DNA from: Patulibacter defluvii
GTDB lineage: Bacteria > Actinomycetota > Thermoleophilia > Solirubrobacterales > Solirubrobacteraceae
DNA length: 32,000 bases
Direction of reading: 5' to 3'
Assembly: GCF_034096925.1 (NCBI RefSeq)
Contig: NZ_JAWZSQ010000003.1
Location: 197,532 to 229,531, forward strand
Shown: piece by piece, positions 7,085 to 22,318 of the stretch
How the letters are laid out: the number at the start of each line of letters is the position of its first letter
Position numbering within the stretch: position 1 is the first letter of the stretch
Made by a program: the position numbers and the translations under genes
The notes under the pieces: generated by a model
Database searches by the model: none
Seen by the model: the letters and a program-made list of their open reading frames with translations, nothing else
What the model was told of the DNA's origin: nothing

Positions 7085-7087
7085 GGG

Positions 7088-7450: not shown

Positions 7451-7520
7451 GGGTCGATGTTCGAGCGCCCGGTTCCAGAAGTCCAATACCTGGTTCGGAT
7501 CGAATATAGAATTCTCAGTT
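7451..7520. promoter_or_regulatory. Divergent promoter region between the SnoaL-like gene and the LysR gene
   Basis: It is one of the most AT-rich segments of the window (GAATATAGAATTCTCAGTT). TAGAAT (7507-7512) fits TANNNT and lies 8 nt before ATG 7521. A short inverted repeat TTCGgatCGAA lies at about 7493-7503. No binding site is proven. Confidence 0.3.
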
Positions 7521-8393
7521 ATGGAACTGCAGCAGCTGCGGTACCTCGCCGAGGTCCGGCGGCGGGGCTCGTTCACCGCCGCCGCCGAGGCGCTGCACGT
7601 CAGCCAGCCGGGGGTCTCGGCCCAGGTCGCCAAGCTCGAGCGCGAGCTGGGCGTGCGGCTGTTCGACCGCGGCGCGCGGGTGGCGACGCTGACGCCCGAG
7701 GGCCAGGCGCTGCTGCCGCACGCGACGGCCGCGCTCGACGCGGTCGGGCGGATCCGGACGGTCGCCGACGACCTCGCCGGCGTCACCCGCGGCCAGGTCC
7801 GGATCGGGACCGTGATCGGCTGCACGATCCCGGGCTACCTGCGCGCGTTCGCCGGCTTCCGCAAGGCCCATCCCGGCGTCGCGGTGACGGCGAGCGAGGG
7901 CAACTCCGACGACCTGATCGCCGCTCTCGCCGCCGGCGATCTCGACGTCGCCCTGGTCGCGCACGCGGTCCCGCTGCCGGCCGACTTCGACGTCGTCACC
8001 GTCGTCGACGAGCCGCTCGCCGCCGCCGTGCCGCGGACGCACCCGTGGGCCGGGCGGATCGCGGTGCCCCCCGCCGCCCTGGCCGAGCAGGACGTCCTGA
8101 CCCTGCCGCCCGGAACCGGCGTCCGCGCCGCGCTGGCGACCACCTGCGCCGCCGCCGGCGTCGACCTCGTCCCGGCGGTCCAGGTCCACTCGCCCGAGGC
8201 GGCCCTGGCCCTGGCCGCCGAGGGCGCTGGCGTCGCGGTGCTCTCGCCGTCGATGATCGCCGCCCCGCTGGTCGCCGTCGCGATCGAGGGGGCCGCGCGG
8301 ACCGCGCTCTCGCTGGCCACCCGCGCCGAGCCCGGTGCCGCCGCGCGGGCGTTCGCGGCGGCGCTGCGGGGCGGGTTGACGGCTGGCCGGTAG
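7521..8393 (+). CDS. LysR-family transcriptional regulator
   Basis: MELQQLRYLAEVRRRGSFTAAAEALHVSQPGVSAQVAKLERELGVRLFDR is a canonical LysR winged-HTH. A substrate-binding domain follows. The gene is divergent from a small target-type gene. Confidence 0.9.
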   Translation: MELQQLRYLAEVRRRGSFTAAAEALHVSQPGVSAQVAKLERELGVRLFDRGARVATLTPEGQALLPHATAALDAVGRIRTVADDLAGVTRGQVRIGTVIGCTIPGYLRAFAGFRKAHPGVAVTASEGNSDDLIAALAAGDLDVALVAHAVPLPADFDVVTVVDEPLAAAVPRTHPWAGRIAVPPAALAEQDVLTLPPGTGVRAALATTCAAAGVDLVPAVQVHSPEAALALAAEGAGVAVLSPSMIAAPLVAVAIEGAARTALSLATRAEPGAAARAFAAALRGGLTAGR

Positions 8394-8519
8394 CCGCTCC
8401 CCTGGCGCACGACGACCTGTCATACTCATCGACGTTCCGGAACGCGCGCAGCCGGACGTGGCGTCTGCGAGGGGCCCGGCGCTCGGGAAGGGCGCGGACG
8501 CAGGAACGAGGAGGCCATC

Positions 8520-9260
8520 GTGGGAGCACGGCTGCGAGACGGAGCGACGGCGGTCGCGGCGACGCTGATGATCAGCGCGGCGGCGGGCTGCGGGAGCGAC
8601 GAGCCGACGGCGGCGACGTCCCGGATCCCGCCGACGGCGAAGGTCCTGATCACGGGCCCGGACGGGAGCGGCATGGCGATCTGGCACCCGCGGACGTTCG
8701 CGGACGCGGTGGCGGGCAGCGACGTCGTGGCGGTCGCGACCGTCCGCAGCGTCCGCGAGGGATCCCAGATCGAGGGCTCCCCGAGCCCGCCGAGCGAGGA
8801 GCTGCCGCCGCCGCTGTCGGCGTTGGCGGTCCAGATCGACGTCGAGCGGGTCATCAACCGCAGCGGCTGGGCCCGCGAGCTGCCCTCGGCGCCGACGCTC
8901 TACCTGCTCGATCCCGACGAGGACGCGCCGCTGGGCGTGACCGCCGGTCACCGCTACGTCTTCTTCCTCGCCGAGTTCGACCAGGTGGTCGAGGGGAACG
9001 ACCGGGCGTACCACACGGCTTGGGCAGGCGCCTACGTGGGTGTCGACGGCGACCGGCTCGAGCAGCTGCCGGAGCACGAGCCGGGAACGACCCTGGCGCC
9101 CACCGGCTCGATCGACGACCTCACCGCCACCGCCCAGCAGGTCAGCGTCGACCGCGAGCTCGCCACCGCCGACGTCAGCGCCTCTCCCAACCCGATGCTG
9201 ACCAACCGGCCGCGCTGGCGCGAGCGCTCCGGCTACCGCCCCCAGGACGACGACCGATGA
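8520..9260 (+). CDS. Putative lipoprotein, function unknown
   Basis: GTG start with GAGGAGG upstream. The signal plus lipobox-like sequence is ATLMISAAAGCGSDEP. G/C at codon position 3 is high. The stop overlaps the next gene's start (ATGA at 9257-9260). Confidence 0.65.
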   Translation: MGARLRDGATAVAATLMISAAAGCGSDEPTAATSRIPPTAKVLITGPDGSGMAIWHPRTFADAVAGSDVVAVATVRSVREGSQIEGSPSPPSEELPPPLSALAVQIDVERVINRSGWARELPSAPTLYLLDPDEDAPLGVTAGHRYVFFLAEFDQVVEGNDRAYHTAWAGAYVGVDGDRLEQLPEHEPGTTLAPTGSIDDLTATAQQVSVDRELATADVSASPNPMLTNRPRWRERSGYRPQDDDR

Positions 9261-9820
9261 CTCGCGCGCGCCGCGCCGCCGGGCGGACCCTCGTCCTCCT
9301 GCTGGCGGCGATCGGGCTCCAGCCGTCCGCGGCCCACGGTCACATCGCGTACGTCACCGACGACGACTGCTGCGTCCGCTTCCAGCACCAGGACCACGAC
9401 CGCGACTTCACGCTCTGGAACCAGATCGACAACGCCTCCTGGAAGGCCGGCGCCCGCCGCGCCCAGCTGCACCTGCACGACATCTACGACGGCTCGCTGC
9501 GGTTCCCGACCGCCGGCTCCTCGGGCAGCGCCGACATCGTGCTCGTCGATGCTCCCTACCCCCTGCCGTTCGTCGGACGCGCCTACCACTGGCGCCACCA
9601 CGGTGGCCAGGGTCGCCTGCAGATGAACACCAACTACGGCCTGACCGAGAACCAGGCCAAGGCCGTCGTCTGCCACGAGCTGAGCCACTTCACCGGCCTC
9701 GCCCACAGCAGCAACGCCTCCGACTGCATGATCGACGACCTCGCCTACCTGGCCAGCACCAACCTCGCGGTCTCGCACCGCGACCAGAACCGCGCCGAAT
9801 GGAACGCCTCGGGCCACTAG
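9257..9820 (+). CDS. Small secreted metzincin (matrixin-like) zinc metalloprotease
   Basis: This is the last 187 codons of track ORF 7154..9820. The signal peptide is MTRARRAAGRTLVLLLAAIGLQPSAAHG. It carries SADIVLV, then the HExxHxxGxxH(S) motif as CHELSHFTGLAHS, and a Met shortly after (SDCMID) that could be a Met-turn. Confidence 0.7.
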   Translation: MTRARRAAGRTLVLLLAAIGLQPSAAHGHIAYVTDDDCCVRFQHQDHDRDFTLWNQIDNASWKAGARRAQLHLHDIYDGSLRFPTAGSSGSADIVLVDAPYPLPFVGRAYHWRHHGGQGRLQMNTNYGLTENQAKAVVCHELSHFTGLAHSSNASDCMIDDLAYLASTNLAVSHRDQNRAEWNASGH

Positions 9821-9842
9821 TCGCGAGCACCGGCCCAGCACC

Positions 9843-9908
9843 TATCGCCCGCGTATCGGGAACCGCATACGCGCCGGCAGCAGGCCGCGGTCTTGACTGG
9901 CCGCATGA
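9843..9908 (+). promoter_or_regulatory. van promoter/operator module, copy A (includes the vanH start codon)
   Basis: TATCGCCcgcGTATCGggAACCGCaTACGcGCcGGC-N14-TTGACTGGcCGCATGA. By hand alignment, 48 of 66 positions match copy B at 13917-13982, with identical spacing to the ATG. The module contains TATCG twice, 11 bp apart, and an inverted repeat GCGTAT-N10-ATACGC. Confidence 0.6.
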
Positions 9909-10942
9909 TCCGCAGCGATCCGGCCCGAACCGCGGCACGCCCCCGACCGCCGGCGCCCTGGGCCGCGCCGGCCACCGCCGCGACCCGGATCACGGTCTAC
10001 GGGTGCGAGCAGGACGAGGCCGCGCTCTTCCGGGCCCTGGCGCCCGGCTTCGACGTCGACGCGACCATCACCGCGGCGCCCGTCTCGGTGGCCAACGTCG
10101 CGCTGGCGGCGGGGAACCGCTGCGTCAGCGTCGGGCACAAGGCCGAGGTCACGGCGGCGACGCTGCGCGCGCTGGCCGACGTGGGCGTGACCTACCTCTC
10201 CACACGGAGCGTCGGCTGCGACCACATCGATGCGGAATGCGCGCGGGACGTCGGCATCAGCGTCGGAACCGTCGCCTATTCGCCCGACAGCGTCGCGGAC
10301 TACACGCTGATGCTGATGCTGATGGCCGTCCGGCACGCGAAGGCGATCGTCCGCCGGGCCGACGTCCACGACTACCGCCTGCACGACCAGCGCGGTCGCG
10401 AGCTGCGCGACCTGACCGTCGGCGTGATCGGCACCGGTCGCATCGGCAGCGCGGTGATCGACCGGCTGCGGGGCTTCGGCTGCCGGGTCCTGGCCCACGA
10501 CCGCCGTCCGGGCGCCGCCGTCGACCACGTGCCGCTCGACGAGCTGCTGCGGCGCAGCGACGTCGTCACCCTCCACACGCCCCTGACCACCGAGACCCAC
10601 CACCTGCTCGACCAGGCCCGGATCGCGCGGATGAAGCCGGGCGCCGTCGTCGTCAACACCGGACGCGGCGCGCTCGTCGACAGCGCGGCGCTGGTCGCGG
10701 CGCTGGAGAGCGGCCGGCTGGGCGGCGCCGCGCTCGACGTCGTGGAGGGCGAGCAGGGGATCTTCTACGCCGACCGCCGCGACCGGCCGATCGAACCCGG
10801 CCCGCTGCGGCGGCTGCAGGAGCTGCCGAACGTGCTCGTCAGCCCGCACACCGCCTACTACACCGACCACGCGCTGCGCGACATGGTCGAGCACACGATC
10901 GCCAACTGCCTGGCGTTCGCCGGGGTGATCGAGCATGCGTAG
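9905..10942 (+). CDS. vanH: D-lactate dehydrogenase (pyruvate reductase), VanH
   Basis: ITVYGCEQDEAALF, VAYSPDSVADYTLMLMLMAVR, VGVIGTGRIGSAVIDRLRGFGC, GGAALDVVEGE and SPHTAYYTDHALRDMV read almost colinearly with enterococcal VanH as I remember it. ATG 9905 is preferred over the track's TTG 9893 because that TTG belongs to the conserved TTGACTGG DNA block. There is no other in-frame start before ITVYGC. Confidence 0.9.
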   Translation: MIRSDPARTAARPRPPAPWAAPATAATRITVYGCEQDEAALFRALAPGFDVDATITAAPVSVANVALAAGNRCVSVGHKAEVTAATLRALADVGVTYLSTRSVGCDHIDAECARDVGISVGTVAYSPDSVADYTLMLMLMAVRHAKAIVRRADVHDYRLHDQRGRELRDLTVGVIGTGRIGSAVIDRLRGFGCRVLAHDRRPGAAVDHVPLDELLRRSDVVTLHTPLTTETHHLLDQARIARMKPGAVVVNTGRGALVDSAALVAALESGRLGGAALDVVEGEQGIFYADRRDRPIEPGPLRRLQELPNVLVSPHTAYYTDHALRDMVEHTIANCLAFAGVIEHA

Positions 10943-11981
10943 GTCGAGGCTCGCGGTCGTCTTCGGCGGCAGTGGCGAGGAGCACCCGATCTCCGTCAAG
11001 TCCGCGCGCGAGGTCGCCAAGCACCTCGACCCCGACAAGTACGAGACGGTCTTCGTCGGGATCACCCGCGCCGGGGCCTGGCGGCTCTGCGACGGTCCCG
11101 ACGGCGACTGGGAGCGGCGCAGCACCCGCGCCGCCGTCCTCTCCCCGGACCGCAGCCGCCCCGGGCTGCTGGTGCTGGACGGCGATCGCCACGAGACCGT
11201 CCCCCTCGACCTGGTGCTGCCGGTGCTGCACGGCAAGTTCGGCGAGGACGGCGCGATCCAGGGGCTGCTGGAGCTGTCGGGCATCCCCTACGCCGGCTGC
11301 GACGTGCCCAGCTCCGCGCTCTGCATCGACAAGGCCCTGGCCTACGTCGTGGCGGGGAGCGCCGGAATCGCGACGCCGCGCTTCTGGACCGTCGCGCCCG
11401 GTGAGGAGATCGACGCGGAGCGGTTGCGCTTCCCGGTCTTCGTCAAGCCGGCGCGCTCGGGCTCGTCGTTCGGCGTCACCAAGGTCTCCGCTCCCGGCGA
11501 GCTGGAGGACGCGGTCCGCGACGCGCGCCAGTACGACGCCAAGCTCGTGATCGAGGAGGCGGTCGTCGGCAACGAGGTCGGCTGCGCGATCCACGGCAAC
11601 GGCGCCGACCTCTTCGCCGGCGAGGTCGACCAGATCGCGCTCTCCGGCGGCTTCTTCCGGATCCACCAGGAGCAGGCGCCCGAGCAGGGCTCCGACAACG
11701 CGACGGTCAACGTCCCGGCCGACATCTCCGCCGAGGCCCGATCGCGGGTGCAGGAGACGGCCAAGGCGATCTACCGCGCCCTCGGCTGCCGCGGGCTCGC
11801 GCGGGTCGACATGTTCCTGACCGCGGACGGGACGGTCGTGCTCAACGAGGTCAACACCTTCCCCGGGATGACCTCGTACAGCCGCTACCCGCGGATGATG
11901 GCCGCGGCCGGGCTCTCCTTCGCCGAGGTCCTCGACCGGATCGTGGCGTCGACGCTGGAGGGCCACGACGGTGACCGCTGA
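10935..11981 (+). CDS. vanA: D-alanine--D-lactate ligase (VanA/VanB type)
   Basis: LAVVFGGSGEEHPISVKSA is typical of the Ddl family. The C-terminal block FFRIHQEQAPEQGSDNATVNVPADISAEARSRVQETAKAIYRALGCRGLARVDMFL...LNEVNTFPGMTSYSRYPRMMAAAG closely follows the VanA sequence (..FRIHQE..EKGSENA..), not housekeeping Ddl. It overlaps vanH by 8 nt. Confidence 0.92.
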   Translation: MRRSRLAVVFGGSGEEHPISVKSAREVAKHLDPDKYETVFVGITRAGAWRLCDGPDGDWERRSTRAAVLSPDRSRPGLLVLDGDRHETVPLDLVLPVLHGKFGEDGAIQGLLELSGIPYAGCDVPSSALCIDKALAYVVAGSAGIATPRFWTVAPGEEIDAERLRFPVFVKPARSGSSFGVTKVSAPGELEDAVRDARQYDAKLVIEEAVVGNEVGCAIHGNGADLFAGEVDQIALSGGFFRIHQEQAPEQGSDNATVNVPADISAEARSRVQETAKAIYRALGCRGLARVDMFLTADGTVVLNEVNTFPGMTSYSRYPRMMAAAGLSFAEVLDRIVASTLEGHDGDR

Positions 11982-12597
11982 GTTCGCCTTCGTCGACGAC
12001 GTCGTCGCGGGCGTCCGCTGGGACGCCAAGTACGCCACCTGGGACAACTTCACCGGCAAGCCGGTCGACGGCTACGAGGTCAACCGGATCGTCGGCGCGC
12101 GGGCGCTCTGCGACGCGCTCGCCGTCGCCCGCGACGAGGCCGCCGTGCGCGGGTTCGGCCTGCTGCTGTGGGACGGCTACCGGCCCCAGCGCGCCGTCGA
12201 GTGCTTCCTGCGCTGGTTCGAGCAGCCGGAGAACGGGCGCACGAAGCAGCGCCACTACCCGAACATCGACCGCCGCGAGATGGTCGACCGCGGCTACGTC
12301 GCTCCCCGCTCGGGGCACAGCCGCGGCAGCAGCGTCGACCTGACGCTCTTCGACCTGGCGACCGGCGAGCTGGTGCCGATGGGCGGCGGCCACGACCTGA
12401 TGGACCCGATCTCCCACCACGACGCGCCCGGCGTGAGCGCGGTCGAGGCCGCCAACCGCCGGCAGCTGCGGGCGCTGATGGAGGCCTCGGGCTTCCGCGC
12501 CTACGCCTGCGAGTGGTGGCACTACGCGCTGCGGACCGAGCCCTACCCCGCCACCTACTTCGACTTCCCGATCAGCCATGCGCTTCTCGGCCGCTGA
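11971..12597 (+). CDS. vanX: D-Ala-D-Ala dipeptidase, VanX
   Basis: DAKYATWDNFTGKPVDGY, LLLWDGYRPQRAV, SGHSRGSSVDLTL (Zn ligands) and EWWHY are VanX hallmarks. The GTG start overlaps the ligase gene by 11 nt. Confidence 0.92.
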   Translation: MTAEFAFVDDVVAGVRWDAKYATWDNFTGKPVDGYEVNRIVGARALCDALAVARDEAAVRGFGLLLWDGYRPQRAVECFLRWFEQPENGRTKQRHYPNIDRREMVDRGYVAPRSGHSRGSSVDLTLFDLATGELVPMGGGHDLMDPISHHDAPGVSAVEAANRRQLRALMEASGFRAYACEWWHYALRTEPYPATYFDFPISHALLGR

Positions 12598-13906
12598 GCT
12601 GGCGGACCACCTGGGCGCCGAGCTGGTCGGCCCCGACGTCGCCGTCGAGGGCGCCAGCATCGACACGCGGACGCTCCGGCCCGGGCAGCTCTACGCGCCG
12701 ATCGTGGCGGCGCGCGACGGCCACGACTTCCTGCCGGCGGCGCTCGCGGCGGGCGCCGCGGCCTACCTGACCGCGCGCGAGCCGGTCGGCGGGACCGCCA
12801 TCCGCGTGCCCGACACCGCCGCCGCGCTGCTGCGGCTGGGGGCGCTCGGACGCGACAGGATCGCCGGCGCGATCGGCATCACCGGCTCGGTCGGCAAGAC
12901 CACCACCAAGGACCTGCTGGCCGGCTGCCTGGCGTCGACCTTCCCGACCGCGGCCAGCGAGCGGTCGTTCAACAACGAGCTGGGCCTGCCGCTGACGCTG
13001 CTCGGCGCGCCCGAGGCGACCCGCTGGGTGGTGCTGGAGATGGGCGTCCGGCGCGAGGGCGACATCGACCGGCTGTGCCAGGTGGCCCGGCCCGAGGTCG
13101 GCGTCGTGACCGCCGTCGACCTGGCCCACGTCGAGTTCCTGGGCGACCTCGACGGCGTCGCTCGGGCCAAGGGCGAGCTGGTCGCCGGGCTGCCGCCCTC
13201 GGGGCTGGCCGTCCTCAACGTCGACGACCCGCGGGTGCGGGCGATGGCCTCGCGCAGCGCCGCCCGCGTGCTGGGCTACGGCACCGGTCCCGAAGCCCAG
13301 GTCCGGGCCGACGACGTCGCGCTCGACGACGAGCTGCGCGCCCGCTTCCGGCTCTCGTCGCCGTGGGGCCGGACGGAGGTCCGGCTGGGGCTGCGCGGCG
13401 CCCACCAGGTGACCAACGCGCTGGCCGCGGCGGCGGTCGCGCTCTGGGCCGGGGTCCCGATCGAGGCGGTCGCCGCGGCGCTGGCCGAGGGGCGGGCGTC
13501 GCCGTGGCGGATGGAGGTCCACCACGTGCCCGCCGGCCCGCTGCTGGTGGTCGACTGCTTCAACGCGATCCCGGCGTCGGCCGAGGCGGCGGTGCGCTCG
13601 CTGGCGGCGCTGCCGGGCGAGCGCAGGCTGGCGCTGCTCGGACTGATGGCCGAGCTGGGGGAGCGGAGCGCGACCGAGCACCGCCGGATCGCCGCCGTGG
13701 CCGAGCGGCTCGGGGTCCAGGTGGTCGGCTACGAGACCGACCTCTACGGCGAGGCGCACGTGACCGGCGTCGACGATGCCGTCGCGCTGCTGCGGACGCT
13801 GGGTCCGCGCGACGCGGCGCTGGTGAAGGGCAGCCGGGTGGCGCGGCTCGAGGACGTGGTCCACGCCTACGGCCGGGCCCGGGGCGTGCCGTCGCTGGCG
13901 GGGTAG
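12578..13906 (+). CDS. murF: UDP-MurNAc-tripeptide--D-alanyl-D-alanine (D-Ala-D-Lac) ligase, MurF paralogue
   Basis: SIDTRTLRPGQLY, the P-loop ITGSVGKTTTKDL, NNELGLPLTL and MEV are Mur-ligase/MurF signatures. It overlaps vanX by 20 nt. Confidence 0.9.
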   Translation: MRFSAAELADHLGAELVGPDVAVEGASIDTRTLRPGQLYAPIVAARDGHDFLPAALAAGAAAYLTAREPVGGTAIRVPDTAAALLRLGALGRDRIAGAIGITGSVGKTTTKDLLAGCLASTFPTAASERSFNNELGLPLTLLGAPEATRWVVLEMGVRREGDIDRLCQVARPEVGVVTAVDLAHVEFLGDLDGVARAKGELVAGLPPSGLAVLNVDDPRVRAMASRSAARVLGYGTGPEAQVRADDVALDDELRARFRLSSPWGRTEVRLGLRGAHQVTNALAAAAVALWAGVPIEAVAAALAEGRASPWRMEVHHVPAGPLLVVDCFNAIPASAEAAVRSLAALPGERRLALLGLMAELGERSATEHRRIAAVAERLGVQVVGYETDLYGEAHVTGVDDAVALLRTLGPRDAALVKGSRVARLEDVVHAYGRARGVPSLAG

Positions 13907-13916
13907 GCGGCGGGGG

Positions 13917-13982
13917 TATCGCCGACGTATCGCAAACCGCGTACGTGCTGGCGACACCGCTCCCCGTTGACTGGTCGCATGA
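13917..13982 (+). promoter_or_regulatory. van promoter/operator module, copy B (includes the start codon of the PhyH-like gene)
   Basis: TATCGCCgacGTATCGcaAACCGCgTACGtGCtGGC-N14-TTGACTGGtCGCATGA. It has the same block order and the same 62-nt distance from TATCGCC to the ATG as copy A. It begins 11 nt after the murF stop. Confidence 0.6.
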
Positions 13983-14773
13983 GCTACAGCAACGCAGCGA
14001 CGGAGCCGCTGGCGAAGACCGTGGCGGAGGAGGGCTGGGCCGTGGTCGGGACGCTCGACCGCCCGCTCTCCCGCCGGCTGCTGGGGGCGGTCGACGAGGT
14101 GGCGGCACGGTCTCCCGAGGCCGGGGCCGGGGGCCAGCTCCACCTGCTCTCGGGCCTGGCCCAGCACCCGCGGCTGGCGGCGGTCGTCGACTGGCCGCCG
14201 CTGCTGGCGCTCGCGGTCGAGCTGCTCTCGCCCAACATCTACATCAACCACTCGCACCTGGACGTCCACCCGCCGCACCCGCCGACCGGCGCCCACCGCT
14301 GGCACCGCGACAACGGCCTGATGGGGCGCGACATGCGGCTGCTCTGGCGCGACCAGCCGCGGGTGACGCTGAAGGTCGCGATCTACCTGACCGACGTCGA
14401 GTCGGCGGACGACGGCGCGCTCGAGGTGGTCCCGCGCAGCCACCTCGACGCGGAGTCGCGGTACCCGACCGAGGAGCAGCCCGACGGCGTGCCGATCCTC
14501 GGGCCGGCGGGCACGGTCGCCGTCTTCGACGCCCGGCTCTGGCACCGCCGGCGGGACAACCTCGGCGCCCGCACCCGGCGGGCGATGTTCTGGGGCTACA
14601 GCTACCGCTGGATGACCTCGCGCGACACGCCGTTCGCCGACGTGCCGGCGTGGGCCACGCAGCCGCCGGTCCGCCGCCAGCTGCTCGGCGACCCGACGGT
14701 CGACCCGTTCTACTGGGCGGCCGGCGAGCTGGCGCTCGATCCGCGAGCCGGTGCGTTCCAGGAGGCGGCGTGA
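13979..14773 (+). CDS. PhyH-family Fe(II)/2-oxoglutarate-dependent dioxygenase, substrate unknown
   Basis: WHRD (HxD), LKVAIYLTDVESADDGALEVVPRSH and the distal His in FDARLWHRR match phytanoyl-CoA-dioxygenase-type signatures. ATG 13979 is preferred over TTG 13967 for the same reason as vanH. The stop overlaps the vanY ATG by 1 nt. Confidence 0.8.
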   Translation: MSYSNAATEPLAKTVAEEGWAVVGTLDRPLSRRLLGAVDEVAARSPEAGAGGQLHLLSGLAQHPRLAAVVDWPPLLALAVELLSPNIYINHSHLDVHPPHPPTGAHRWHRDNGLMGRDMRLLWRDQPRVTLKVAIYLTDVESADDGALEVVPRSHLDAESRYPTEEQPDGVPILGPAGTVAVFDARLWHRRRDNLGARTRRAMFWGYSYRWMTSRDTPFADVPAWATQPPVRRQLLGDPTVDPFYWAAGELALDPRAGAFQEAA

Positions 14774-15423
14774 TGCGGGCCGACCAGCTGACGGGGATGG
14801 GCACGATCCACCGCGCCCCGATCCGGATCCGCAAGCGGCGCGTGGCCGCCCTGCTCGTCGTCCTGGGGGCGATCGTGGTGGCGATCAGCGGCCGCTCGCC
14901 GGGACCGTCGGCGTCGATGGTCGACGCGGTCGGCGGCGAGCACCGCGGCAGCGGCTGGCGCGGCGAGCTGGGCGTGGCCGCCGGGGCCGTGCCCGACGGC
15001 ACGACGGTCTTCGACGGCGGCGTCCCGGGCGTCGCCAAGCTCGACCCGGCGCTGCTCGACGCGGTTCGTCGGGCCGCGTCGCAGGCGGCGAACGAGGGGA
15101 TCGCGTTCGTCGTCGACAGCGGCTGGCGCTCGCGGGCGTACCAGCAGCGGCTGCTCGACGAGGCGGTCGCGAAGTACGGCTCGCAGGCCGAGGCGTCGCG
15201 CTGGGTGGCCACGCCCGGCACCTCGGCCCACGTCTCCGGTCAGGCGATCGACATCGGTCCCGCGGGCGCCGCCGCCTGGCTGGCCCGGCACGGCTCCGCC
15301 TACGGCCTCTGCCGGATCTACGGCAACGAGCCCTGGCACTACGAGCTGCGGCCCGACGCGGTCGCCTCCGGCTGCCCGCCGGTCTACGCCGACCCGACGC
15401 AGGATCCGCGGATGCGGCAGTGA
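14773..15423 (+). CDS. vanY: Membrane-anchored D,D-carboxypeptidase, VanY (peptidase M15B)
   Basis: This is the last 216 codons of track ORF 13075..15423. The N-terminal anchor is RKRRVAALLVVLGAIVVAI. The M15 Zn motifs are SAHVSGQAIDI (SxHxxGxAxD) and EPWHYE. Confidence 0.85.
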   Translation: MRADQLTGMGTIHRAPIRIRKRRVAALLVVLGAIVVAISGRSPGPSASMVDAVGGEHRGSGWRGELGVAAGAVPDGTTVFDGGVPGVAKLDPALLDAVRRAASQAANEGIAFVVDSGWRSRAYQQRLLDEAVAKYGSQAEASRWVATPGTSAHVSGQAIDIGPAGAAAWLARHGSAYGLCRIYGNEPWHYELRPDAVASGCPPVYADPTQDPRMRQ

Positions 15424-15459
15424 CGGCCGTCGACCGGTGGGCCGGTTCGACGTCCGGTT

Positions 15460-16212
15460 TCAGGAGGAGGGTGCCGCCGATGCGTTCTCGGCGTCGAGCG
15501 CCGCACGCAGGCGGCGGTCGGCACGCTCCATGTGGGCGCGCATCGCGGCCCGGGCGGCGTCCGGATCGGCGCCGGCGATCGCGTCGACGATCGGCTCGTG
15601 CATGTCGAACGACGACGCCGTCTCGCCGGCGTGCTCGAGCACCCGCTTGGCCCAGACACCGAGCAGCGAGCGGAGACTGGTCACGAGGCTGATGAAGGTC
15701 TCGTTCTCCGTCGCGGCGGCGATCTCCAGGTGCAGCGCGACGTCCGCCTCGACGTAGCGATCGACGTCGTCGCCCGCCTGCCGGAGCGCGTCCAGGGCCT
15801 TGCGGAGCCGGGCGGTCGTCTCCTCCGTGGCGCGCTCGGCGGCGAGTCCCGCGACCAGCACCTCGATCTCGGCGCGCGCCTCGACCAGGTCGAAGATCCG
15901 CCGCTGCCCGAGCAACAGGCCCCATTCGATCACCTGCGGCAGCAGATCCGAGCCGGACTGCGACAGGTAGGTCCCGTCCCCCTGACGCACGTCGAGCAGG
16001 CCGAGCAGGCTGAGCGACTTGATCGCCTCGCGGACCTGTGAGCGGCCGACGCCCAGCGCCTCGGCCAGCTGCCGCTCCGGCGGGATCTTCGAGCCCGGGG
16101 AGACCTCGCCCGACAGCAGGTAGTCCAGCAGCGTCCGCGTGATCTCCGTCACCGGCGGCCGGCGGGGGGCGATGCGGAGGCTCTGGGGGAGGGCGCTTGA
16201 CTCGTTGTGCAT
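15460..16212 (-). CDS. GntR-family transcriptional regulator, FadR subfamily (FCD domain)
   Basis: The winged HTH is KIPPERQLAEALGVGRSQVREAIKSLSLLGLLDVRQGDGTYL. An all-helical C-terminal domain with conserved His/Asp (HLEIAAAT...MHEPIVDAI) follows. Confidence 0.9.
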   Translation of the reverse strand: MHNESSALPQSLRIAPRRPPVTEITRTLLDYLLSGEVSPGSKIPPERQLAEALGVGRSQVREAIKSLSLLGLLDVRQGDGTYLSQSGSDLLPQVIEWGLLLGQRRIFDLVEARAEIEVLVAGLAAERATEETTARLRKALDALRQAGDDVDRYVEADVALHLEIAAATENETFISLVTSLRSLLGVWAKRVLEHAGETASSFDMHEPIVDAIAGADPDAARAAMRAHMERADRRLRAALDAENASAAPSS

Positions 16213-16227
16213 GAAGATGGCGGATCA

Positions 16228-16243
16228 GGTCGACCGGTCGACC
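16228..16243. promoter_or_regulatory. Operator palindrome 1 (putative GntR site, in front of gntR)
   Basis: GGTCGACCGGTCGACC is a perfect 16-bp palindrome that ends 15 nt from the gntR start codon. It contains GT-N2-AC units, consistent with the generic GntR-family operator form. Confidence 0.6.
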
Positions 16244-16281
16244 AAGCCTAGAGCACCGTCCCGAAGGATGGCTCCCAAATT

Positions 16282-16297
16282 GGTTGACCGGTCGACC
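16282..16297. promoter_or_regulatory. Operator palindrome 2 (overlaps the -35 of the aminotransferase promoter)
   Basis: GGTTGACCGGTCGACC is self-complementary at all but one symmetric base pair. It is identical to the site at 25640-25655. Confidence 0.6.
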
Positions 16298-16318
16298 TCA
16301 AACGGTTACGCTCGGCCC
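16284..16318 (+). promoter_or_regulatory. Sigma-70-type promoter predicted to give a leaderless mRNA starting at ATG 16319
   Basis: TTGACC (16284-16289), N17, TACGCT (16307-16312), N6, ATG (16319). There is no Shine-Dalgarno sequence. Confidence 0.45.
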
Positions 16319-17632
16319 ATGGCCCAGTCCTCCAACCCCTTGGCGCTGCTGGGCGGGACCCCCGCGCACCGCCTGCCGAACCCCAAGTACCCGCGCCTCG
16401 GCGCCGACCTCCACGTCCGGATCGCGGACGCGCTCGACCGCGGGCCGATGCAGGGCCTCAGCAAGGGCCACCCGATCATCGAGGAGCTGGAGACGCGGCT
16501 CGCCGCGTACCACGGCGTCGACCAGGTGCTCGCCTCCAGCTCGGGCCACGGGGCGCTCCAGTCCGCCCTGATCGGGCTCGAGGTCACCGGCGGCGACGAG
16601 GTGCTCACCTCGCCCTACTCCTGGGGGGCCTCGGTCTCCTGCATCCTGCACAACGGCGCGGTGCCGGTCTTCGTCGACATCGACCGCGACAACGGGCTGC
16701 TGGACCCGGCCCGGCTCGCCGACGGACTGACGCCGCGGACCCGGGCGATCCTCGTGCCCCACCTCTACGGGCAGCCGGCGGACATGACCGCGATCATGCG
16801 GTTCGCCGAGGATCACGACCTGCTGGTGATCGAGGACGGCAGCCAGGCGCACGGCGCGCGTCACCGCGGCACCCGGGTCGGCGCCTTCGGTCACGCCGGC
16901 GGGTTCTCCACCAACGGGGTCAAGCCGCTCGCCACCACCGAGGGCGGGTACATGGTCACCCGCGTTGCCGACGTCTACTGGAAGGCGACCATCAGCGGTC
17001 AGCACGCCGGCCGCGGAGAGCTGCTGGGGCGGGCCAGCGAGCCCGGCTTCCCCGACGAGCTGCGGCCTCTGGTCGACTCGCTGATCTACTCCTACCGCCC
17101 GAACGTGGTCTCGGCGCTGATGGCGCTGGACCGGCTCCCGCACCTGGAAGAGGAGAACGCCGCGCGGCGCTGGAACGCGGCGCGGCTCTTCGAGGGACTG
17201 CGCGACGTCGAGGCGCTCAGCTGGCCGACGGTCGACGAGGCCGACGAGTGCGTCTTCCACATGGTGACCCTGAACTTCGACGCCGAGCTGGCGGGCGTCG
17301 AGCGCGACGCGTTCGTCGCCGCGCTCGCCGTCGAGGGCGTGCCGGCGGTCCCGTACGTGGCCAAGGGCCTGCATCGCTCGGAGCGGCTGAGCCCGAGCTA
17401 CGGCGGCCCGCGGGTGATGTGGACGGAAACGATCCGCCGGTCGGGCATCGACCCGACCGCCGTCGAGCTGCCGGGCTGCGACGCCAAGGTCGCCCGCTCG
17501 ATCGAGATCCCGTGGAACTACTTCGAGCGCGACCCCGACCTGATCGACAGCCTGGTCGGCGCCTTCCGGAAGGTCCAGGCGGAGCTGCCCGCGCTGCGAC
17601 GGCACGCCGATCGGCACCAGGCGACGGTCTAG
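16319..17632 (+). CDS. DegT/DnrJ/EryC1/StrS-family PLP-dependent (sugar/cyclitol) aminotransferase
   Basis: The internal ATG at codon 61 of track ORF 16139..17632 is used. Family-typical features are LALLGG.P, SSSGHGALQSALIGL, TSPYSWGASV, DIDRDNGLLD, IEDGSQAHGA and a probable PLP Lys in FSTNGVKPL. Confidence 0.85.
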   Translation: MAQSSNPLALLGGTPAHRLPNPKYPRLGADLHVRIADALDRGPMQGLSKGHPIIEELETRLAAYHGVDQVLASSSGHGALQSALIGLEVTGGDEVLTSPYSWGASVSCILHNGAVPVFVDIDRDNGLLDPARLADGLTPRTRAILVPHLYGQPADMTAIMRFAEDHDLLVIEDGSQAHGARHRGTRVGAFGHAGGFSTNGVKPLATTEGGYMVTRVADVYWKATISGQHAGRGELLGRASEPGFPDELRPLVDSLIYSYRPNVVSALMALDRLPHLEEENAARRWNAARLFEGLRDVEALSWPTVDEADECVFHMVTLNFDAELAGVERDAFVAALAVEGVPAVPYVAKGLHRSERLSPSYGGPRVMWTETIRRSGIDPTAVELPGCDAKVARSIEIPWNYFERDPDLIDSLVGAFRKVQAELPALRRHADRHQATV

Positions 17633-17669
17633 CGCCGGACGCTCCGTCCCGCGATCGATCTGGAGAACC

Positions 17670-18854
17670 GTGTCGACCTCGATGGCCACCGTCGCCTACG
17701 ACCCGTTCGCGTACGCGATGCACGATGACCCGTACCCGACCTACGCGCTGCTGCGGGACCACTTCCCGGTCTACCGCAACGAGGAGCGCGGCTTCTGGGC
17801 GCTCTCGCGCTTCGACGACGTGCGGGCGGCCGCGCGCGACTGGCGCAGCTTCTCGAGCCATCCTGGCGTCGATCTCGACGGCACCGGGCAGGAGTACGGG
17901 CCGGGCAACTTCATCGACCTCGACCCGCCCCGCCACGACGCGCTGCGCAAGGTCCTGCGCCACGCGTTCGTCCCCAAGCAGGTCGCCGGCTACGAGCCGG
18001 CGGCACGGGCGGCGGTCGCCGAGATCGCCCGCACGCTGGAGGGGCGGAGCACCGTCGACCTGGCCGACCAGGTCGCCTGGACGCTGCCGGTGACGATGAT
18101 CTGCGAGCTGCTCGGGGTGCCTCGCGACGACCGCGCCGCGCTGCGCTCGTGGCTCGACCGTTTCATGTTCCGGCACGACGGGGTCGACCGCCTGCCCGAG
18201 GACGCCGTCCACGCCCTGGGCGCGGCCGCCGGCTACTTCCGCGCCCTGATCGACGAGCGCCGGCGGACGCCCCGCGACGACGTCGCGACGACCCTGACCC
18301 GGGCCGAGGTCGATGGCGTCCCGCTGGCCGAGGACGAGATCGTCTCGATCTGCCTGCTGCTGCTCGCTGCCGGCGTCGAGACCGCGGCGGGCCTGATCGC
18401 GAGCGCGTTCCTGGTCCTCGCCGAGCATCCCGTCGCCCGCCGGCGCCTGCGGGCGACGCCCGACCTGATCCCGGCGGCGATCGAGGAGGTCCTGCGCCTG
18501 GAGTCCCCGATCCAGGGACTCGCGCGGACCGCGACCGTCGACGTCCCCGTCCACGATCAGGTGATCCCGGCCGGCGCCCGCGTGTTCCTGCTCTTCGGCG
18601 CCGCCAACCGCGACGGCCGCCGGTTCGACGATCCCAACGCGTTCGACCTCGACCGCGAGGCGCCGAAGAGCCTGGCCTTCGGCGAGGGGATCCACTTCTG
18701 CCTCGGCGCGCCGCTGGCCCGGCTGGAGGCGCGGGTCGTGCTCGAGCAGCTGCTGCCGCCGCTGGGCGACTACGTGGTCGACGGCCCGGTCGAGCGGCTG
18801 CACAGCCACACGACCCGGGCGGCGGTCTCGCTGCCGGTCGAGGTCGACGCGTGA
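17670..18854 (+). CDS. Cytochrome P450
   Basis: The heme-thiolate loop is FGEGIHFCLGAPLA, the ExxR motif is EEVLRLESP, and the I-helix is LLLAAGVETAAG. The GTG start is preceded by GGAGAA. ATG 17682 is an alternative start. Confidence 0.9.
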   Translation: MSTSMATVAYDPFAYAMHDDPYPTYALLRDHFPVYRNEERGFWALSRFDDVRAAARDWRSFSSHPGVDLDGTGQEYGPGNFIDLDPPRHDALRKVLRHAFVPKQVAGYEPAARAAVAEIARTLEGRSTVDLADQVAWTLPVTMICELLGVPRDDRAALRSWLDRFMFRHDGVDRLPEDAVHALGAAAGYFRALIDERRRTPRDDVATTLTRAEVDGVPLAEDEIVSICLLLLAAGVETAAGLIASAFLVLAEHPVARRRLRATPDLIPAAIEEVLRLESPIQGLARTATVDVPVHDQVIPAGARVFLLFGAANRDGRRFDDPNAFDLDREAPKSLAFGEGIHFCLGAPLARLEARVVLEQLLPPLGDYVVDGPVERLHSHTTRAAVSLPVEVDA

Positions 18855-20011
18855 GCGGCCCGCCGTTCCCGCCCGAGCAGCTGGACCGGCTGCTGGCGGA
18901 GCAGGACGTCGCCGCGGTCCTGGCCACCTCGGCCCACAACGTCCGCCACCTGCTCGGCGGGTACCGCTTCTTCCTCTATGCGACCCTCGACGGGATCGGC
19001 CACGACCGCTACCTGCCGTTCGTCGGGTACGTCGCTGGCCGTCCGGAGGCGGCGTTCTACGTCGGCGCCGGCAACGAGGCCTGGGGAACCGACGCGACGC
19101 CGCTGTGGGTGCCCGACCTGGCGCTGGAGGCGTGGACCGCGGCCGACGCGGCCCGGATCGCCGGCGCCCGCCTGCGCGACGCCGGCCTGGCGCGGGGCCG
19201 GATCGGGGTCGAGCTGCCCTATCTGACGGCGGACGCCTTCACGGCGCTCCGCGACGCCCTGCCCCACGCGGACCTCGTCGACGTCTCCCATCCGCTGGAG
19301 GAGCTGCGGGCGGTCAAGCGACGGGACGAGCTGGACCTGATGCGGCGCGGCGCCACAGCGGTCGTCGACGCGATGCTGGCGACGTTCGCCGCGACCCGCG
19401 TCGGCGCGAGCGAGCGCGAGATCGTCGAGCGGCTGCGGATCGAGGAGACCCGCCGGGGCCTCGGCTTCGGCTACTGCCTGATCGCCAGCGGCGACTCCGC
19501 CACCCGCGGGCCGTCCGACCGGCGGCTCGCTCCCGGCGACGTGCTGTCGCTCGACTCCGGGGCGCACTTCGACGGCTACGTCGCCGACCTCACGCGGATG
19601 GCGGTGGCCGGCGAGCCGACCCGCCGCCACCAGCAGCTGCTGGACCAGATCCTCGCCGTGCAGGAGGCCGCGCGGGACGCGGCCCGCGGGGGCCGGCGGG
19701 GCGGCGCGATCTTCGACGCCGCCGACGCCGCGATCCGCGAGCAGGCCGACGGCGCGCGGATGACCTTCCTCGCCCACGGCACCGGGCTGCTCTCGCACGA
19801 GGCGCCGCGGCTGACCGACAGCGGCTCGCCGCCCTACCCCGCGACCCACCGCGAGCGGCCGCTGCGCCCGGGTCAGGTGCTCTCGATCGAGACCCACCTG
19901 ATCGACCCGCTGATCGGCTTCGTGAAGCTCGAGGACACGGTGATCGTGACCGCCGGCGCCTGCGAGCCGTGCGGGGATCACGGGCGCGGCTGGACGGTCA
20001 TCGATGCCTGA
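18851..20011 (+). CDS. M24-family metallohydrolase (Xaa-Pro peptidase / creatinase-like)
   Basis: This is the tail of track ORF 18149..20011. The GTG overlaps the P450 stop (GTGA at 18851-18854). The metal-ligand pattern is LDSGAHFDGYVADLTR, HGTGLLSHE, LSIETH and KLEDTVIVT. Confidence 0.85.
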   Translation: MSGPPFPPEQLDRLLAEQDVAAVLATSAHNVRHLLGGYRFFLYATLDGIGHDRYLPFVGYVAGRPEAAFYVGAGNEAWGTDATPLWVPDLALEAWTAADAARIAGARLRDAGLARGRIGVELPYLTADAFTALRDALPHADLVDVSHPLEELRAVKRRDELDLMRRGATAVVDAMLATFAATRVGASEREIVERLRIEETRRGLGFGYCLIASGDSATRGPSDRRLAPGDVLSLDSGAHFDGYVADLTRMAVAGEPTRRHQQLLDQILAVQEAARDAARGGRRGGAIFDAADAAIREQADGARMTFLAHGTGLLSHEAPRLTDSGSPPYPATHRERPLRPGQVLSIETHLIDPLIGFVKLEDTVIVTAGACEPCGDHGRGWTVIDA

Positions 20012-21461
20012 GCTGCGGGCTGGCGTCGCCGTGACCGGCCGCCGCGGGCTGCTCGCCGATCGGCCGCCGGCGCCGATCGACGCCGGCCGTCCGGCCCGGA
20101 TCGCCGCTGCCCTGCGGAGGTCGCCGACGACGGTGCTGGTGGTCGACGACGACCCGACCGGCAGCCAGGTGGTGGCCGGCGTGCCGCTGGTGACGTCCTG
20201 GAGCGCGGACGACCTGCGGTGGGCGCTGGCCCACGAAGCCGGGGTGGCGTTCGTGCTCACGAACTCGCGGGCGCTGTCGGAGGCCGAGGCCGAGGCGATC
20301 AACCGCACCGTCGGCGAGCGGGCGCAGCAGGTCGCGGCGTCGCTCGGAATCCGACTCGAGGTGATCAGCCGCAGCGACTCGCTGCTCCGCGGCCACTTCC
20401 CGGCCGAGGTGCTGGCGCTCGACGAGGGGCTGCGATGCGGTGGGGCCGCGCCACTCGACGGCATCGTGCTCTGCCCGGCCTATCCGGAGGCGGGTCGGAT
20501 CACCGTCGACCGGCGGCACTGGGTCCGTCAGCGCGACGGCGGCCACCGGCCCGCGGCCGCGACCGAGTTCGCCGCCGACCCGGTGTTCGCCTACGACGAC
20601 TCCGATCTGCGCGCATGGGCGACGGCGCGCGGTCGCGGCCGCTGGCGGTCGGCGGACGTGCGCGAGGTCGGCCTCGACGACCTCCGCCGTGGCGGACCGG
20701 AGCGCGTCGCGGCGATCCTCGCCACCGTCTCCGGCGGCCGGCCGGTGGTCTGCGACGCCGCTGACGAGGAGGACCTGCTCGTATTGGCCGAGGGCCTGGC
20801 CCGGGCCGAGGCCCGCGGTCGTCGGTTCGTGACCCGGTCGGGACCGTCGTTCGTGGCCGCGCGCAGCGGCCGCACGGTCCCGCCGCCCTGCACGGGGCCG
20901 ATCGCCGAACCCGGGGTCGCCGCCGGCACGCTGGTGGTCGTCGGCTCGCACACCGCGCTCACCAGCGAACAGCTTGCGCGGGCGCAGCGGCGCACCGGCC
21001 TACGGGTGCTGGAGCTCGATACCGTCGCGGTCGCCAGCTCGGACAACGCGGCCCGCCGCGAGGTCCACCAGCTGGCGGCGCGCGCCGCTCGCGCGCTGCG
21101 CACGGGGGACGTCGCGATCGCCACCTCGCGGAGCCTGCTGACCCGCCGCGATCCGCTGGCCGACATCCGGCTGAAGCAGCGGATCGCGCAGGCGGTCGTC
21201 GACGTCGTCCGCGAGACCGTGGCCGCCACCCGGCCGCGGGCCGTGGTGGCCAAGGGCGGCGTGACCGCGCACCGCGTCGCCGCCGAGTCGCTCGGTGCGC
21301 GCCGCGCGATCGTCCTCGGCCAGCTGCTGCCCGGCCAGGTCTCGGTCTGGCGGATCGAGAGCGCCGCCGCGGCGGGCCTGCCGTACGTCGTCTTCCCCGG
21401 GAACGTCGGCCACGCCGACGCGTTGACCGCCGTCCTCACTCGAACCAAGGACCGGACCTGA
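20004..21461 (+). CDS. Four-carbon/acid-sugar kinase family protein (DUF1537; OtnK/DtnK/YgbK-like)
   Basis: VLVVDDDPTGSQ corresponds to the ADDFTGA N-terminal motif of YgbK-type kinases. VVAKGGVTAH corresponds to their C-terminal GGETS nucleotide-site motif. ATG 20004 (an 8-nt overlap) adds about 43 residues ahead of the usual N-terminus. The in-frame GTG 20133 is an alternative start. Confidence 0.8.
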   Translation: MPELRAGVAVTGRRGLLADRPPAPIDAGRPARIAAALRRSPTTVLVVDDDPTGSQVVAGVPLVTSWSADDLRWALAHEAGVAFVLTNSRALSEAEAEAINRTVGERAQQVAASLGIRLEVISRSDSLLRGHFPAEVLALDEGLRCGGAAPLDGIVLCPAYPEAGRITVDRRHWVRQRDGGHRPAAATEFAADPVFAYDDSDLRAWATARGRGRWRSADVREVGLDDLRRGGPERVAAILATVSGGRPVVCDAADEEDLLVLAEGLARAEARGRRFVTRSGPSFVAARSGRTVPPPCTGPIAEPGVAAGTLVVVGSHTALTSEQLARAQRRTGLRVLELDTVAVASSDNAARREVHQLAARAARALRTGDVAIATSRSLLTRRDPLADIRLKQRIAQAVVDVVRETVAATRPRAVVAKGGVTAHRVAAESLGARRAIVLGQLLPGQVSVWRIESAAAAGLPYVVFPGNVGHADALTAVLTRTKDRT

Positions 21462-22318
21462 TGCTCGCCACTGGTACCCGCGACCTCGCCCGCGCTCACG
21501 CGGAAGGCTGGGCGATCCCAGGCTTCTCCGTCTACAACCTCGAACAGGCCCTGGCGGTCTGCCGGGCGGCCGAGGCCGAGGGCACGCCGGCGATCGTGCA
21601 GGCCGGCAGCAGCGCGTTCGGCTACGCCGGCGAGGGTCCGCTGGCGGCGCTCGCGGTGGCCGCGGCGACGGCCAGCCCGGCCCGGATCGGCGTCCACCTC
21701 GACCACGCCACCGACCTCGACGAGATCGGCCGTTGCCTGCGGGCCGGCTACAGCTCGGTGATGTACGACGGCTCGGCCCTGCCGCTGGAGGAGAACGTGC
21801 GCCGGACCGGCGAGGTGGTGCGGATGGCGGCCGAGCACGGCGCCTGGGTCGAGGCGGAGCTTGCGGGATTCGCCGGCGACGAGGACCGGACGACCGATGC
21901 CCAGGCGACGGCCCTGACCGACCCCGAGGTGGCGGCGGGGTTCGTGGCGGCGACCGGCGTCGACGCGCTGGCGATCGCGATCGGCAACGTCCACGGCATC
22001 CCGACCCGGCCGGTGCAGCTCGACTTCGACCGGCTGGCGGCGATCCGCGAGCGCGTCGAGGTGCCGCTGGTCCTGCACGGCGCTTCGGGGCTGCCCGACG
22101 GCGACGTCGCCCGCGCGATCGGGCTCGGCGTGGCCAAGATCAACGTCAACACGGAGCTCCGGCGGGCCTTCCGGGACGCCTGGCGGCGGACGGCGGCCGC
22201 GCCTCCCGACGGCGACGCGCTGCCGCCGATCCTCGAACCCGCGATCCGGGCGGTCGAGGACGTCGCGCGGGCCAAGCTGCGGGCGTTCGCGCGGGCCACG
22301 ACCGGAGCGCGCGCATGA
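21461..22318 (+). CDS. Class II ketose-bisphosphate aldolase family (FBA/GatY/IolJ-like)
   Basis: Family motifs are GFSVYNLEQ, HLDH, MYDGS, EAELAG, IGNVHG and VLHGASGLP. The ATG overlaps the kinase stop by 1 nt. Confidence 0.85.
   Translation: MLATGTRDLARAHAEGWAIPGFSVYNLEQALAVCRAAEAEGTPAIVQAGSSAFGYAGEGPLAALAVAAATASPARIGVHLDHATDLDEIGRCLRAGYSSVMYDGSALPLEENVRRTGEVVRMAAEHGAWVEAELAGFAGDEDRTTDAQATALTDPEVAAGFVAATGVDALAIAIGNVHGIPTRPVQLDFDRLAAIRERVEVPLVLHGASGLPDGDVARAIGLGVAKINVNTELRRAFRDAWRRTAAAPPDGDALPPILEPAIRAVEDVARAKLRAFARATTGARA

Follow-up and report, generated by a model that had tools for sequence, protein, structure and literature searches.

A PhyH-type oxygenase gene preceded by a van operator cassette: a probable accessory gene of the van clusters of Solirubrobacterales

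Introduction

Directly behind the genes vanH, vanA, vanX and murF, on a 32,000-nucleotide (nt) stretch of DNA from Patulibacter defluvii (assembly GCF_034096925.1, contig NZ_JAWZSQ010000003.1, positions 197,532 to 229,531 of the forward strand; hereafter "the window"), lies a gene for a PhyH-type Fe(II)/2-oxoglutarate (2OG) oxygenase, which we call phyH. We report here that orthologues of this gene occupy the van cluster across the order Solirubrobacterales, and that a 63-nt cassette found directly before vanH and several other genes of the cluster is also found directly before phyH. Judged from this sequence evidence, phyH very probably belongs to the van regulon, and it probably represents a hitherto undescribed accessory gene for resistance, which would bring a new enzyme class to van clusters. 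Taken as a whole, the explanation that we place first, with confidence a little above even, is that phyH encodes an active cytoplasmic Fe(II)/2OG oxygenase and has been conserved in the Solirubrobacterales as an accessory gene of their van cluster.

The van clusters of clinical bacteria are held to have come from a reservoir in environmental actinobacteria. To our knowledge, the recognised van accessory genes have remained the same for years, and there is almost no experimental genetics in the Thermoleophilia. We found no literature that links a PhyH/2OG oxygenase to van clusters, and full-text searches for vanHAX together with phytanoyl-CoA dioxygenase, or together with dioxygenase and murF, came back empty. 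A 2021 survey of actinobacterial van genes recorded murF, murG and GNAT genes co-localised with them, and arrangements of vanYRS or vanRSHAXY, sometimes with murF, in the Solirubrobacterales; it makes no mention of an oxygenase, a hydroxylase or PhyH (PMC8698665). The present analysis follows an earlier sequence-only reading of the window, which had described phyH as a dioxygenase gene translationally coupled to vanY.

Conservation of phyH in the van clusters of Solirubrobacterales

Species-representative genomes and metagenome contigs were scanned, which yielded 91 loci, and genes were mapped on them by tblastn with the window proteins and six further reference proteins. An orthologue of phyH at 74% identity or more (74-91%) is present in 72 loci, 48 of which have at least 400 nt upstream of the gene and are regarded here as informative. 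In 47 of these 48 loci, which belong to several families of the Solirubrobacterales, the gene immediately 5' of phyH is a van-cluster gene, namely lytR_C (25 loci), murF (15), vanR (3), the S11 carboxypeptidase gene (2), vanS (1) or vanX (1). The loci without van genes all end short upstream, with the exception of L080, and in six loci phyH is found just 5' of vanH instead. Long contigs display the full order: vanS-vanR (leftward), S11, vanH, vanA, vanX, murF, (lytR_C), phyH and vanY, often followed by a peptidoglycan-binding-HlyD/ABC/FtsX (MacB-type) operon. The hosts include Paraconexibacteraceae and many metagenome-assembled genomes (MAGs) of Solirubrobacteraceae as well as Solirubrobacter soli, Patulibacter medicamentivorans and Conexibacter woesei; cultured strains with the arrangement are C. 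woesei DSM 14684, S. soli DSM 22325 and P. medicamentivorans I11. On the C. woesei DSM 14684 genome (CP001854.1), phyH occupies approximately 1,486,109-1,486,912.

The reverse test, with loci picked via murF, gave an intact phyH in five of six loci (C. woesei DSM 14684, which is the complete genome of a type strain, a related assembly, a Baekduia MAG and two metagenome contigs) and a deleted remnant in the sixth. As a way to check its proposal, the sequence-only reading had named a search of other genomes for this PhyH subfamily next to vanY or vanHAX, and both counts strongly bear out such an association. When a plasmid collection was searched by tblastn, the single match was an irrelevant one of 30% identity on a Streptomyces plasmid.

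A 63-nt cassette shared by phyH, vanH and other genes of the cluster

When the 140 nt 5' of phyH were aligned for 36 loci, a block of approximately 65 nt proved to be conserved whatever gene stands upstream. Its core, NTAT[CG]G-N5-NTAT[CG]G, occurs in 96 copies (88 of them unique) in 771 kilobases, against about 1.1 expected from base composition. All classified copies lie in van clusters, face the downstream gene and abut its start codon; this gene is phyH in 43 cases, vanH in 15, vanY in 12, the S11 carboxypeptidase gene in nine and lytR_C in six, and the 11 unassigned copies mostly precede genes cut at contig ends, with the ABC operon of two loci (L048 and L052) in addition. The start codon is at offset 63 in 70 of 78 copies. 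The consensus, gCATATCGnCGGCaTATCGAAAAcCgCATACGtGCnGGCAACacCnCgctGccTTgAcTGGcGGC-RTG, comprises three direct repeats, ATATCG-N5-ATATCG-N8-ATACG (spaced by 11 and 14 nt), a conserved GGCAAC and a -10-like hexamer, TTGACT/TTCAAT, located 6-7 nt ahead of the start codon. The window contains exactly two good copies, one before vanH and one before phyH (Table 1), which divide its van genes into two putative box-controlled units, vanH-A-X-murF and phyH-vanY. The geometry of the cassette also indicates that the true start of vanH is the ATG at 9905, the TTG at 9893 being part of the -10-like hexamer.

The possibility that the cassette is an RNA element was rejected, because RNAalifold found no consensus structure in the 88 unique copies, and a DNA operator/promoter is favoured. 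A generic scan for sigma-70 promoters and terminators over positions 9000-16400 gave zero sites; the signal emerged only from the comparison of orthologous upstream regions. Judged from the sequence, the cassette is laid out like a binding site for an activator of the OmpR family that overlaps the -35 region. In related loci, the best models for the regulators are VanR-O and VanS-O, with 450 and 485 bits, respectively.

Because phyH shares the cassette with vanH and the other units, it probably belongs, with a promoter of its own, to a VanR-O-type regulon, in which the MacB-type ABC operon, probably a further carrier of the cassette, may also be included. In the mechanism that we propose, the direct repeats, whose centres lie near -60, -49 and -36, would bind phosphorylated VanR of the VanR-O type, transcription would begin at the first base (A or G) of the start codon, and a glycopeptide would induce phyH together with vanHAX-murF. 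The mRNA would be leaderless, as is suggested by the -10-like hexamer 6 nt upstream, the lack of a Shine-Dalgarno sequence and the position of the start codon at the expected +1. The sequence-only reading had also predicted co-induction with vanHAX-murF, from the position of phyH behind them; this prediction gains support, and the gene's own cassette is a better argument for it than read-through from murF. With the 63-nt cassette, a VanR-O-type regulon can be defined in testable terms, and so can probable leaderless promoters in the Thermoleophilia. The order-wide conservation of phyH together with its own operator copy suggests that D-alanyl-D-lactate (D-Ala-D-Lac) resistance in these bacteria needs, or gains from, an overlooked oxidative step.

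Two side observations concern the cassette. Conservation runs about 15 nt into the coding regions (9842-9921 and 13916-13995 in the window, and likewise in all copies of loci L001-L104), and the non-homologous S11, lytR_C, phyH, vanY and, in part, vanH genes all begin with RTG-ACC-TAC-AGC (M-T/S-Y-S); therefore, the promoter seems to have been passed around the cluster together with the first codons, as a single module. These shared codons may reflect the needs of leaderless translation or of the initially transcribed region. It was also seen that this ABC operon is often a neighbour of the Solirubrobacterales van cluster, with a cassette apparent at position 2105 of L048 and at position 4043 of L052, minus strand.

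The junction of phyH and vanY

In the window, the stop codon of phyH (TGA, 14771-14773) overlaps the vanY start in the sequence GTGATG at 14770-14775, by 1 nt if vanY begins at the ATG of 14773-14775 and by 4 nt (GTGA) if it begins at the in-frame GTG of 14770. The TGATG overlap (14771-14775) had been pointed out in the sequence-only reading and is confirmed. Together with the AGGAGG within the 3' end of phyH, it suggests that vanY of the window would be translated by coupling to phyH. The two genes are joined by CAGGAGGCGGCGTGA or by ATGA (RTGA overlaps) in Conexibacter woesei and Patulibacter medicamentivorans as well. However, the coupling cannot be taken as a general feature: it is confined to the window, Conexibacter and Patulibacter, in which vanY has no cassette, whereas in most relatives vanY has a cassette of its own. 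The emphasis should move from the coupling to vanY, which the earlier reading had stressed, to the dedicated copy of the cassette, which is the conserved feature.

The product of vanY in the window matches Pfam VanY (PF02557, 3e-14), carries the zinc motifs SxHxxGxAxD and ExxH as SAHVSGQAID and EPWH, and has an N-terminal membrane helix (VAALLVVLGAIVVAI). Because its score against the NCBIfam VanY-N model is 75.6 bits, under the cut-off of 250, it is considered a distant VanY. In one Baekduia MAG (L101, 12514-13062), phyH and vanY of the van cluster are separated by an inserted gene with a RibD_C domain.

The oxygenase: family, active site and fold

The phyH reading frame has a third-position GC of 0.95, and its product matches Pfam PF05721 (PhyH) with E = 1.3e-13 and 52.2 bits, against a cut-off of 22. 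The intact HxD...H triad noted in the sequence-only reading (WHRD, LWHRR) is upheld by this match and by the invariance of its residues: WHRD corresponds to residues 108-111 (nt 14300-14311) and LWHRR to residues 187-191 (nt 14537-14551), and H109, D111, H189 and R200 do not vary among 18 aligned sequences with identities down to 47%. H109, D111 and H189 are predicted to be the iron triad, and R200 the arginine for the C5 carboxylate of 2OG. The same alignment shows an unusual invariant strand, NHSHLDVHPPH, and many invariant arginines; nine arginines and five histidines are among the residues that never vary outside the metal triad. Neither a signal peptide nor a membrane segment was seen in the protein.

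The AlphaFold2 model (predicted local distance difference test (pLDDT) 86, predicted template modelling score (pTM) 0.85) confirms, at the level of a predicted structure, a double-stranded beta-helix fold. The best Foldseek match is 8zyb, with E = 3e-14 and a template modelling score (TM-score) of 0.76; several hundred further matches have E <= 0.001, and all among the matches listed are PhyH-like Fe(II)/2OG oxygenases, with TM-scores of 0.70-0.76 and identities of 15-21%. The protein database holds 254 homologues, mostly from soil metagenomes, many of which were named "ectoine hydroxylase" by the Joint Genome Institute (JGI). This name (EctD) was rejected for phyH: the TIGR02408 equivalog scores 19.3 bits against a cut-off of 336.5, and this sub-threshold hit is the sole NCBIfam match of the protein. 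In a representative library the subfamily is compact, with one 50% cluster at 427 bits and everything after it at 215 bits or less.

The ratio of non-synonymous to synonymous substitution rates (dN/dS) of phyH orthologues against the window gene is 0.13-0.35, which indicates purifying selection. This value bears on the alternative of a passenger gene, in which an unrelated oxygenase gene landed beside murF and has no part in the van response. The one MAG whose van cluster has only a 75-amino-acid remnant of phyH would agree with it; however, a position kept in 47 of 48 informative loci in several families, a cluster-specific cassette at phyH in 43 loci, and purifying selection with an invariant active site make this alternative very unlikely.

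What the enzyme may act on

Distant orthologues, with identities of 47-74%, are found in Acidimicrobiia and unclassified Actinomycetota. In four loci (L012, L016, L076 and L095), the orthologue is the fourth and last gene of a peptidoglycan-binding-HlyD/ABC/FtsX operon with a two-component system alongside, and the ATG of phyH overlaps the stop codon of the FtsX permease gene (TGATG; ATGTGATG); the junction lies about 60 nt before the PhyH match in L012, L016 and L076, and the region concerned in L095 is 7013-9828. In an Acidimicrobiaceae MAG (L014, 8739-12156), the orthologue lies between ftsQ and ftsZ, after murC and murB. In another lineage (L096, 5983-7834, and L097), it stands directly 3' of a cwlM-like amidase gene in the region murJ...trxB-trxA-cwlM...parBA. 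As a guide to function, the contexts of the distant orthologues are mixed, suggestive but not decisive.

This recurrent link to the envelope, together with the lack of an export signal and the arginine-rich site, leads us to favour a cytoplasmic, anionic intermediate of the cell envelope as the substrate. The weakest step of the proposed mechanism is that the enzyme would hydroxylate such an intermediate in the cytoplasm or at the inner face of the membrane. Candidate substrates are UDP-MurNAc-peptide or depsipeptide, a stem-peptide amino acid, or a lipid carrier, and hydroxylation would adapt wall synthesis to the D-Ala-D-Lac pathway, as vanK and murF2 do in other actinomycetes. From the sequence and gene context, we rate a substrate related to the cell envelope as a possibility just short of even, and we consider it doubtful that the substrate is specifically the peptidoglycan stem peptide. 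It is a tentative and rather unlikely proposal that the oxygenase adds a hitherto undescribed, glycopeptide-inducible modification to precursors of peptidoglycan, such as the hydroxylation of a stem-peptide residue or of the depsipeptide precursor. If it were true, van-type resistance would have a third biochemical arm in addition to the replacement of the terminus (VanHAX) and its trimming (VanY/VanX), and the product of phyH would be the first Fe(II)/2OG enzyme with a demonstrated action on precursors of the bacterial wall. Our literature search identified no peptidoglycan amino-acid hydroxylase.

Another view is that the enzyme modifies the antibiotic itself, by hydroxylating or oxidising a glycopeptide or another natural product directed at the cell wall and thereby inactivating it. 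The closest structural relatives of phyH are tailoring oxygenases of secondary metabolites, the gene shares its cassette, and presumably its regulation, with resistance genes, and its repeated coupling to MacB-type ABC transporters would suit an enzyme whose substrate is a drug that these could move. An objection to this view is one of topology: the protein has neither a signal peptide nor a membrane segment and depends on Fe(II), 2OG and O2 from the cytosol, whereas glycopeptides have their site of action on the outer face of the membrane and stay outside the cell. Moreover, the nine invariant arginines and five histidines suggest a small anionic substrate and not a large heptapeptide, and we know of no enzymatic inactivation of glycopeptides of the oxidative kind. 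Modification of the antibiotic is therefore improbable.

It is also conceivable that phyH encodes a hydroxylase of stress metabolism or regulation, acting on a compatible solute, another small metabolite or a protein as part of a general envelope-stress response and not in wall chemistry. The JGI label of many orthologues would agree with this, as would a profile search of the PDB, which reaches EctD at E = 3e-7, and the Acidimicrobiia orthologues that stand alone in varied metabolic contexts. Nevertheless, the ectoine-hydroxylase equivalog reaches 19 bits where 336 are required, no ectABC genes are near an orthologue in any locus examined, and a van-specific role is indicated by the dedicated VanR-type cassette and by the constant position within the van cluster, so that we regard a stress hydroxylase as distinctly unlikely.

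The sequence-only reading had set three options for phyH side by side, namely a wall precursor, the antibiotic, or a passenger gene. Position, cassette and dN/dS all but rule out the passenger, topology disfavours the antibiotic, and a wall precursor is the best of the three, as a proposal.

Several observations weigh against the interpretation of phyH as an accessory van gene that acts on the envelope. Some of the other distant orthologues (L092-L094, L017 and L018) are in contexts without envelope genes, and we know of no hydroxylated peptidoglycan component in these genera. Substrate hints sought in the PDB by phmmer, profile search and Foldseek led to generic PhyH-like tailoring enzymes at 15-21% identity, from which the substrate cannot be inferred. 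The metagenome contigs and loci are partly redundant and are not fully independent samples. In the sixth locus picked via murF, a MAG (L103, 8353-8580), vanRS-vanHAX-murF-vanY are kept and an in-frame deletion has cut phyH to a 75-amino-acid open reading frame (ORF), in which the first 20 or so codons are fused in frame to some 30-40 codons from near residue 196 (window numbering); the deletion is either natural or an artefact of assembly. Because this MAG has lost most of the gene and yet kept vanHAX-murF-vanY, phyH is not indispensable. Finally, the two cassette copies of the window differ slightly from the consensus, and, since no vanRS is present there, the case for regulation within the window is the cassette by itself.

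Other features of the window

The G+C content of the window is 72-79%, and third-position GC separates the real genes cleanly from spurious ORFs. The genes vanH, vanA, vanX, murF and phyH are all on the plus strand (Table 1), and orthologues of the window murF at 75-81% identity are likewise located in van clusters. The sequence-only reading had placed phyH behind a "copy B" of the van module; the position directly behind vanH-vanA-vanX-murF stands, but the second copy does not, as tblastn with all van proteins finds one module only in the window, and neither vanR nor vanS. The regulator of this van cluster is located outside the window.

Table 1. Coordinates of the van genes, phyH and associated elements in the window
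Feature	Position	Strand	Evidence or remarks
Operator/promoter cassette before vanH	9842..9904	+	CTATCG-N5-GTATCG-N8-ATACG, GGCAGC, TTGACT, 6 nt, ATG; box match with 1 mismatch
vanH (D-lactate dehydrogenase)	9905..10942	+	Pfam 2-Hacid_dh_C 6e-53; NCBIfam vanH_gen 504 bits
vanA-type D-alanine-(R)-lactate ligase	10935..11981	+	NCBIfam D_ala_D_lac equivalog 559.8 bits, cut-off 550
vanX D-Ala-D-Ala dipeptidase	11971..12597	+	NCBIfam dipept_VanX (equivalog) 374.7 bits, cut-off 320
van-associated murF	12578..13906	+	TIGR01143 murF 335 bits, cut-off 289
Operator/promoter cassette before phyH	13916..13978	+	GTATCG-N5-GTATCG-N8-GTACG, GGCGAC, TTGACT, 6 nt, ATG; exact box match
phyH-like Fe(II)/2OG oxygenase gene	13979..14773	+	264 amino acids; predicted triad H109, D111, H189; predicted 2OG-binding R200
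AGGAGG Shine-Dalgarno sequence for vanY, within the 3' end of phyH	14760..14765	+	CAGGAGGCGGCGTGA junction recurs in C. woesei
vanY-type M15 D,D-carboxypeptidase	14770..15423	+	Start GTG 14770 (GTGA overlap) or ATG 14773
GntR-family gene, convergent, after vanY	15460-16224	-	Profile match

Directly 5' of the vanH cassette, two small genes (8568-9820, plus strand) take the place that vanR or S11 has in related loci, and they are found in no other locus. One encodes 230 amino acids without a family match, and the other a secreted-looking protein of 187 amino acids with a weak match to matrixin (M10) zinc proteases. A 980-amino-acid ORF on the minus strand (2717-5659) has a third-position GC of 0.98 and no Pfam match at all. 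On the 3' side of the van genes, a long co-directional run (16139-25618, plus strand) includes genes for a DegT-type aminotransferase, a P450, an M24 peptidase, a four-carbon acid sugar kinase-like protein (SBD_N/NBD_C), a class II aldolase, an HpcH aldolase, an SDR and an S15 peptidase. This run may be a catabolic or a small biosynthetic cluster; because it is without the cassette, it is not counted in the van regulon.

Comparison with known systems

Among enzymes of known structure, phyH resembles the PhyH-like tailoring oxygenases DhiD (8zyb), TlxI/J (7vbq), SptF, EasH, FtmOx1, AsqJ, EctD and SnoK in its double-stranded beta-helix, its HxD...H triad and its 2OG arginine. It differs from them in sequence (15-21% identity), in the invariant NHSHLDVHPPH strand and very arginine-rich site, and in its context, which is a resistance cluster and not a biosynthetic one.

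Among resistance systems, the vanO cluster of Rhodococcus equi (VanR-O/VanS-O) is comparable, as the regulators in the related loci fit VanR-O and VanS-O best and the ligase scores 547 bits against the VanO model, although all of these scores are under the allele-specific cut-offs and the hosts here belong to the order Solirubrobacterales. We know of no oxygenase gene reported in vanO clusters.

The closest parallel may be found in Streptomyces coelicolor, in whose van cluster vanJ and vanK, studied by Hong et al. in 2004, are reportedly VanR-dependent transcription units next to vanHAX. The enzyme classes are different, phyH encoding a PhyH-type Fe(II)/2OG oxygenase, whereas VanK is a FemAB-type transferase and VanJ a membrane protein. 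On the other hand, phyH is, like vanJ and vanK, an extra gene in an actinobacterial van cluster, in a separate unit apparently under the response regulator of vanHAX, and each of these genes presumably adjusts wall synthesis to precursors of the D-Ala-D-Lac type. In their logic, the murF, murG and GNAT genes of other actinobacterial van loci are close analogues too.

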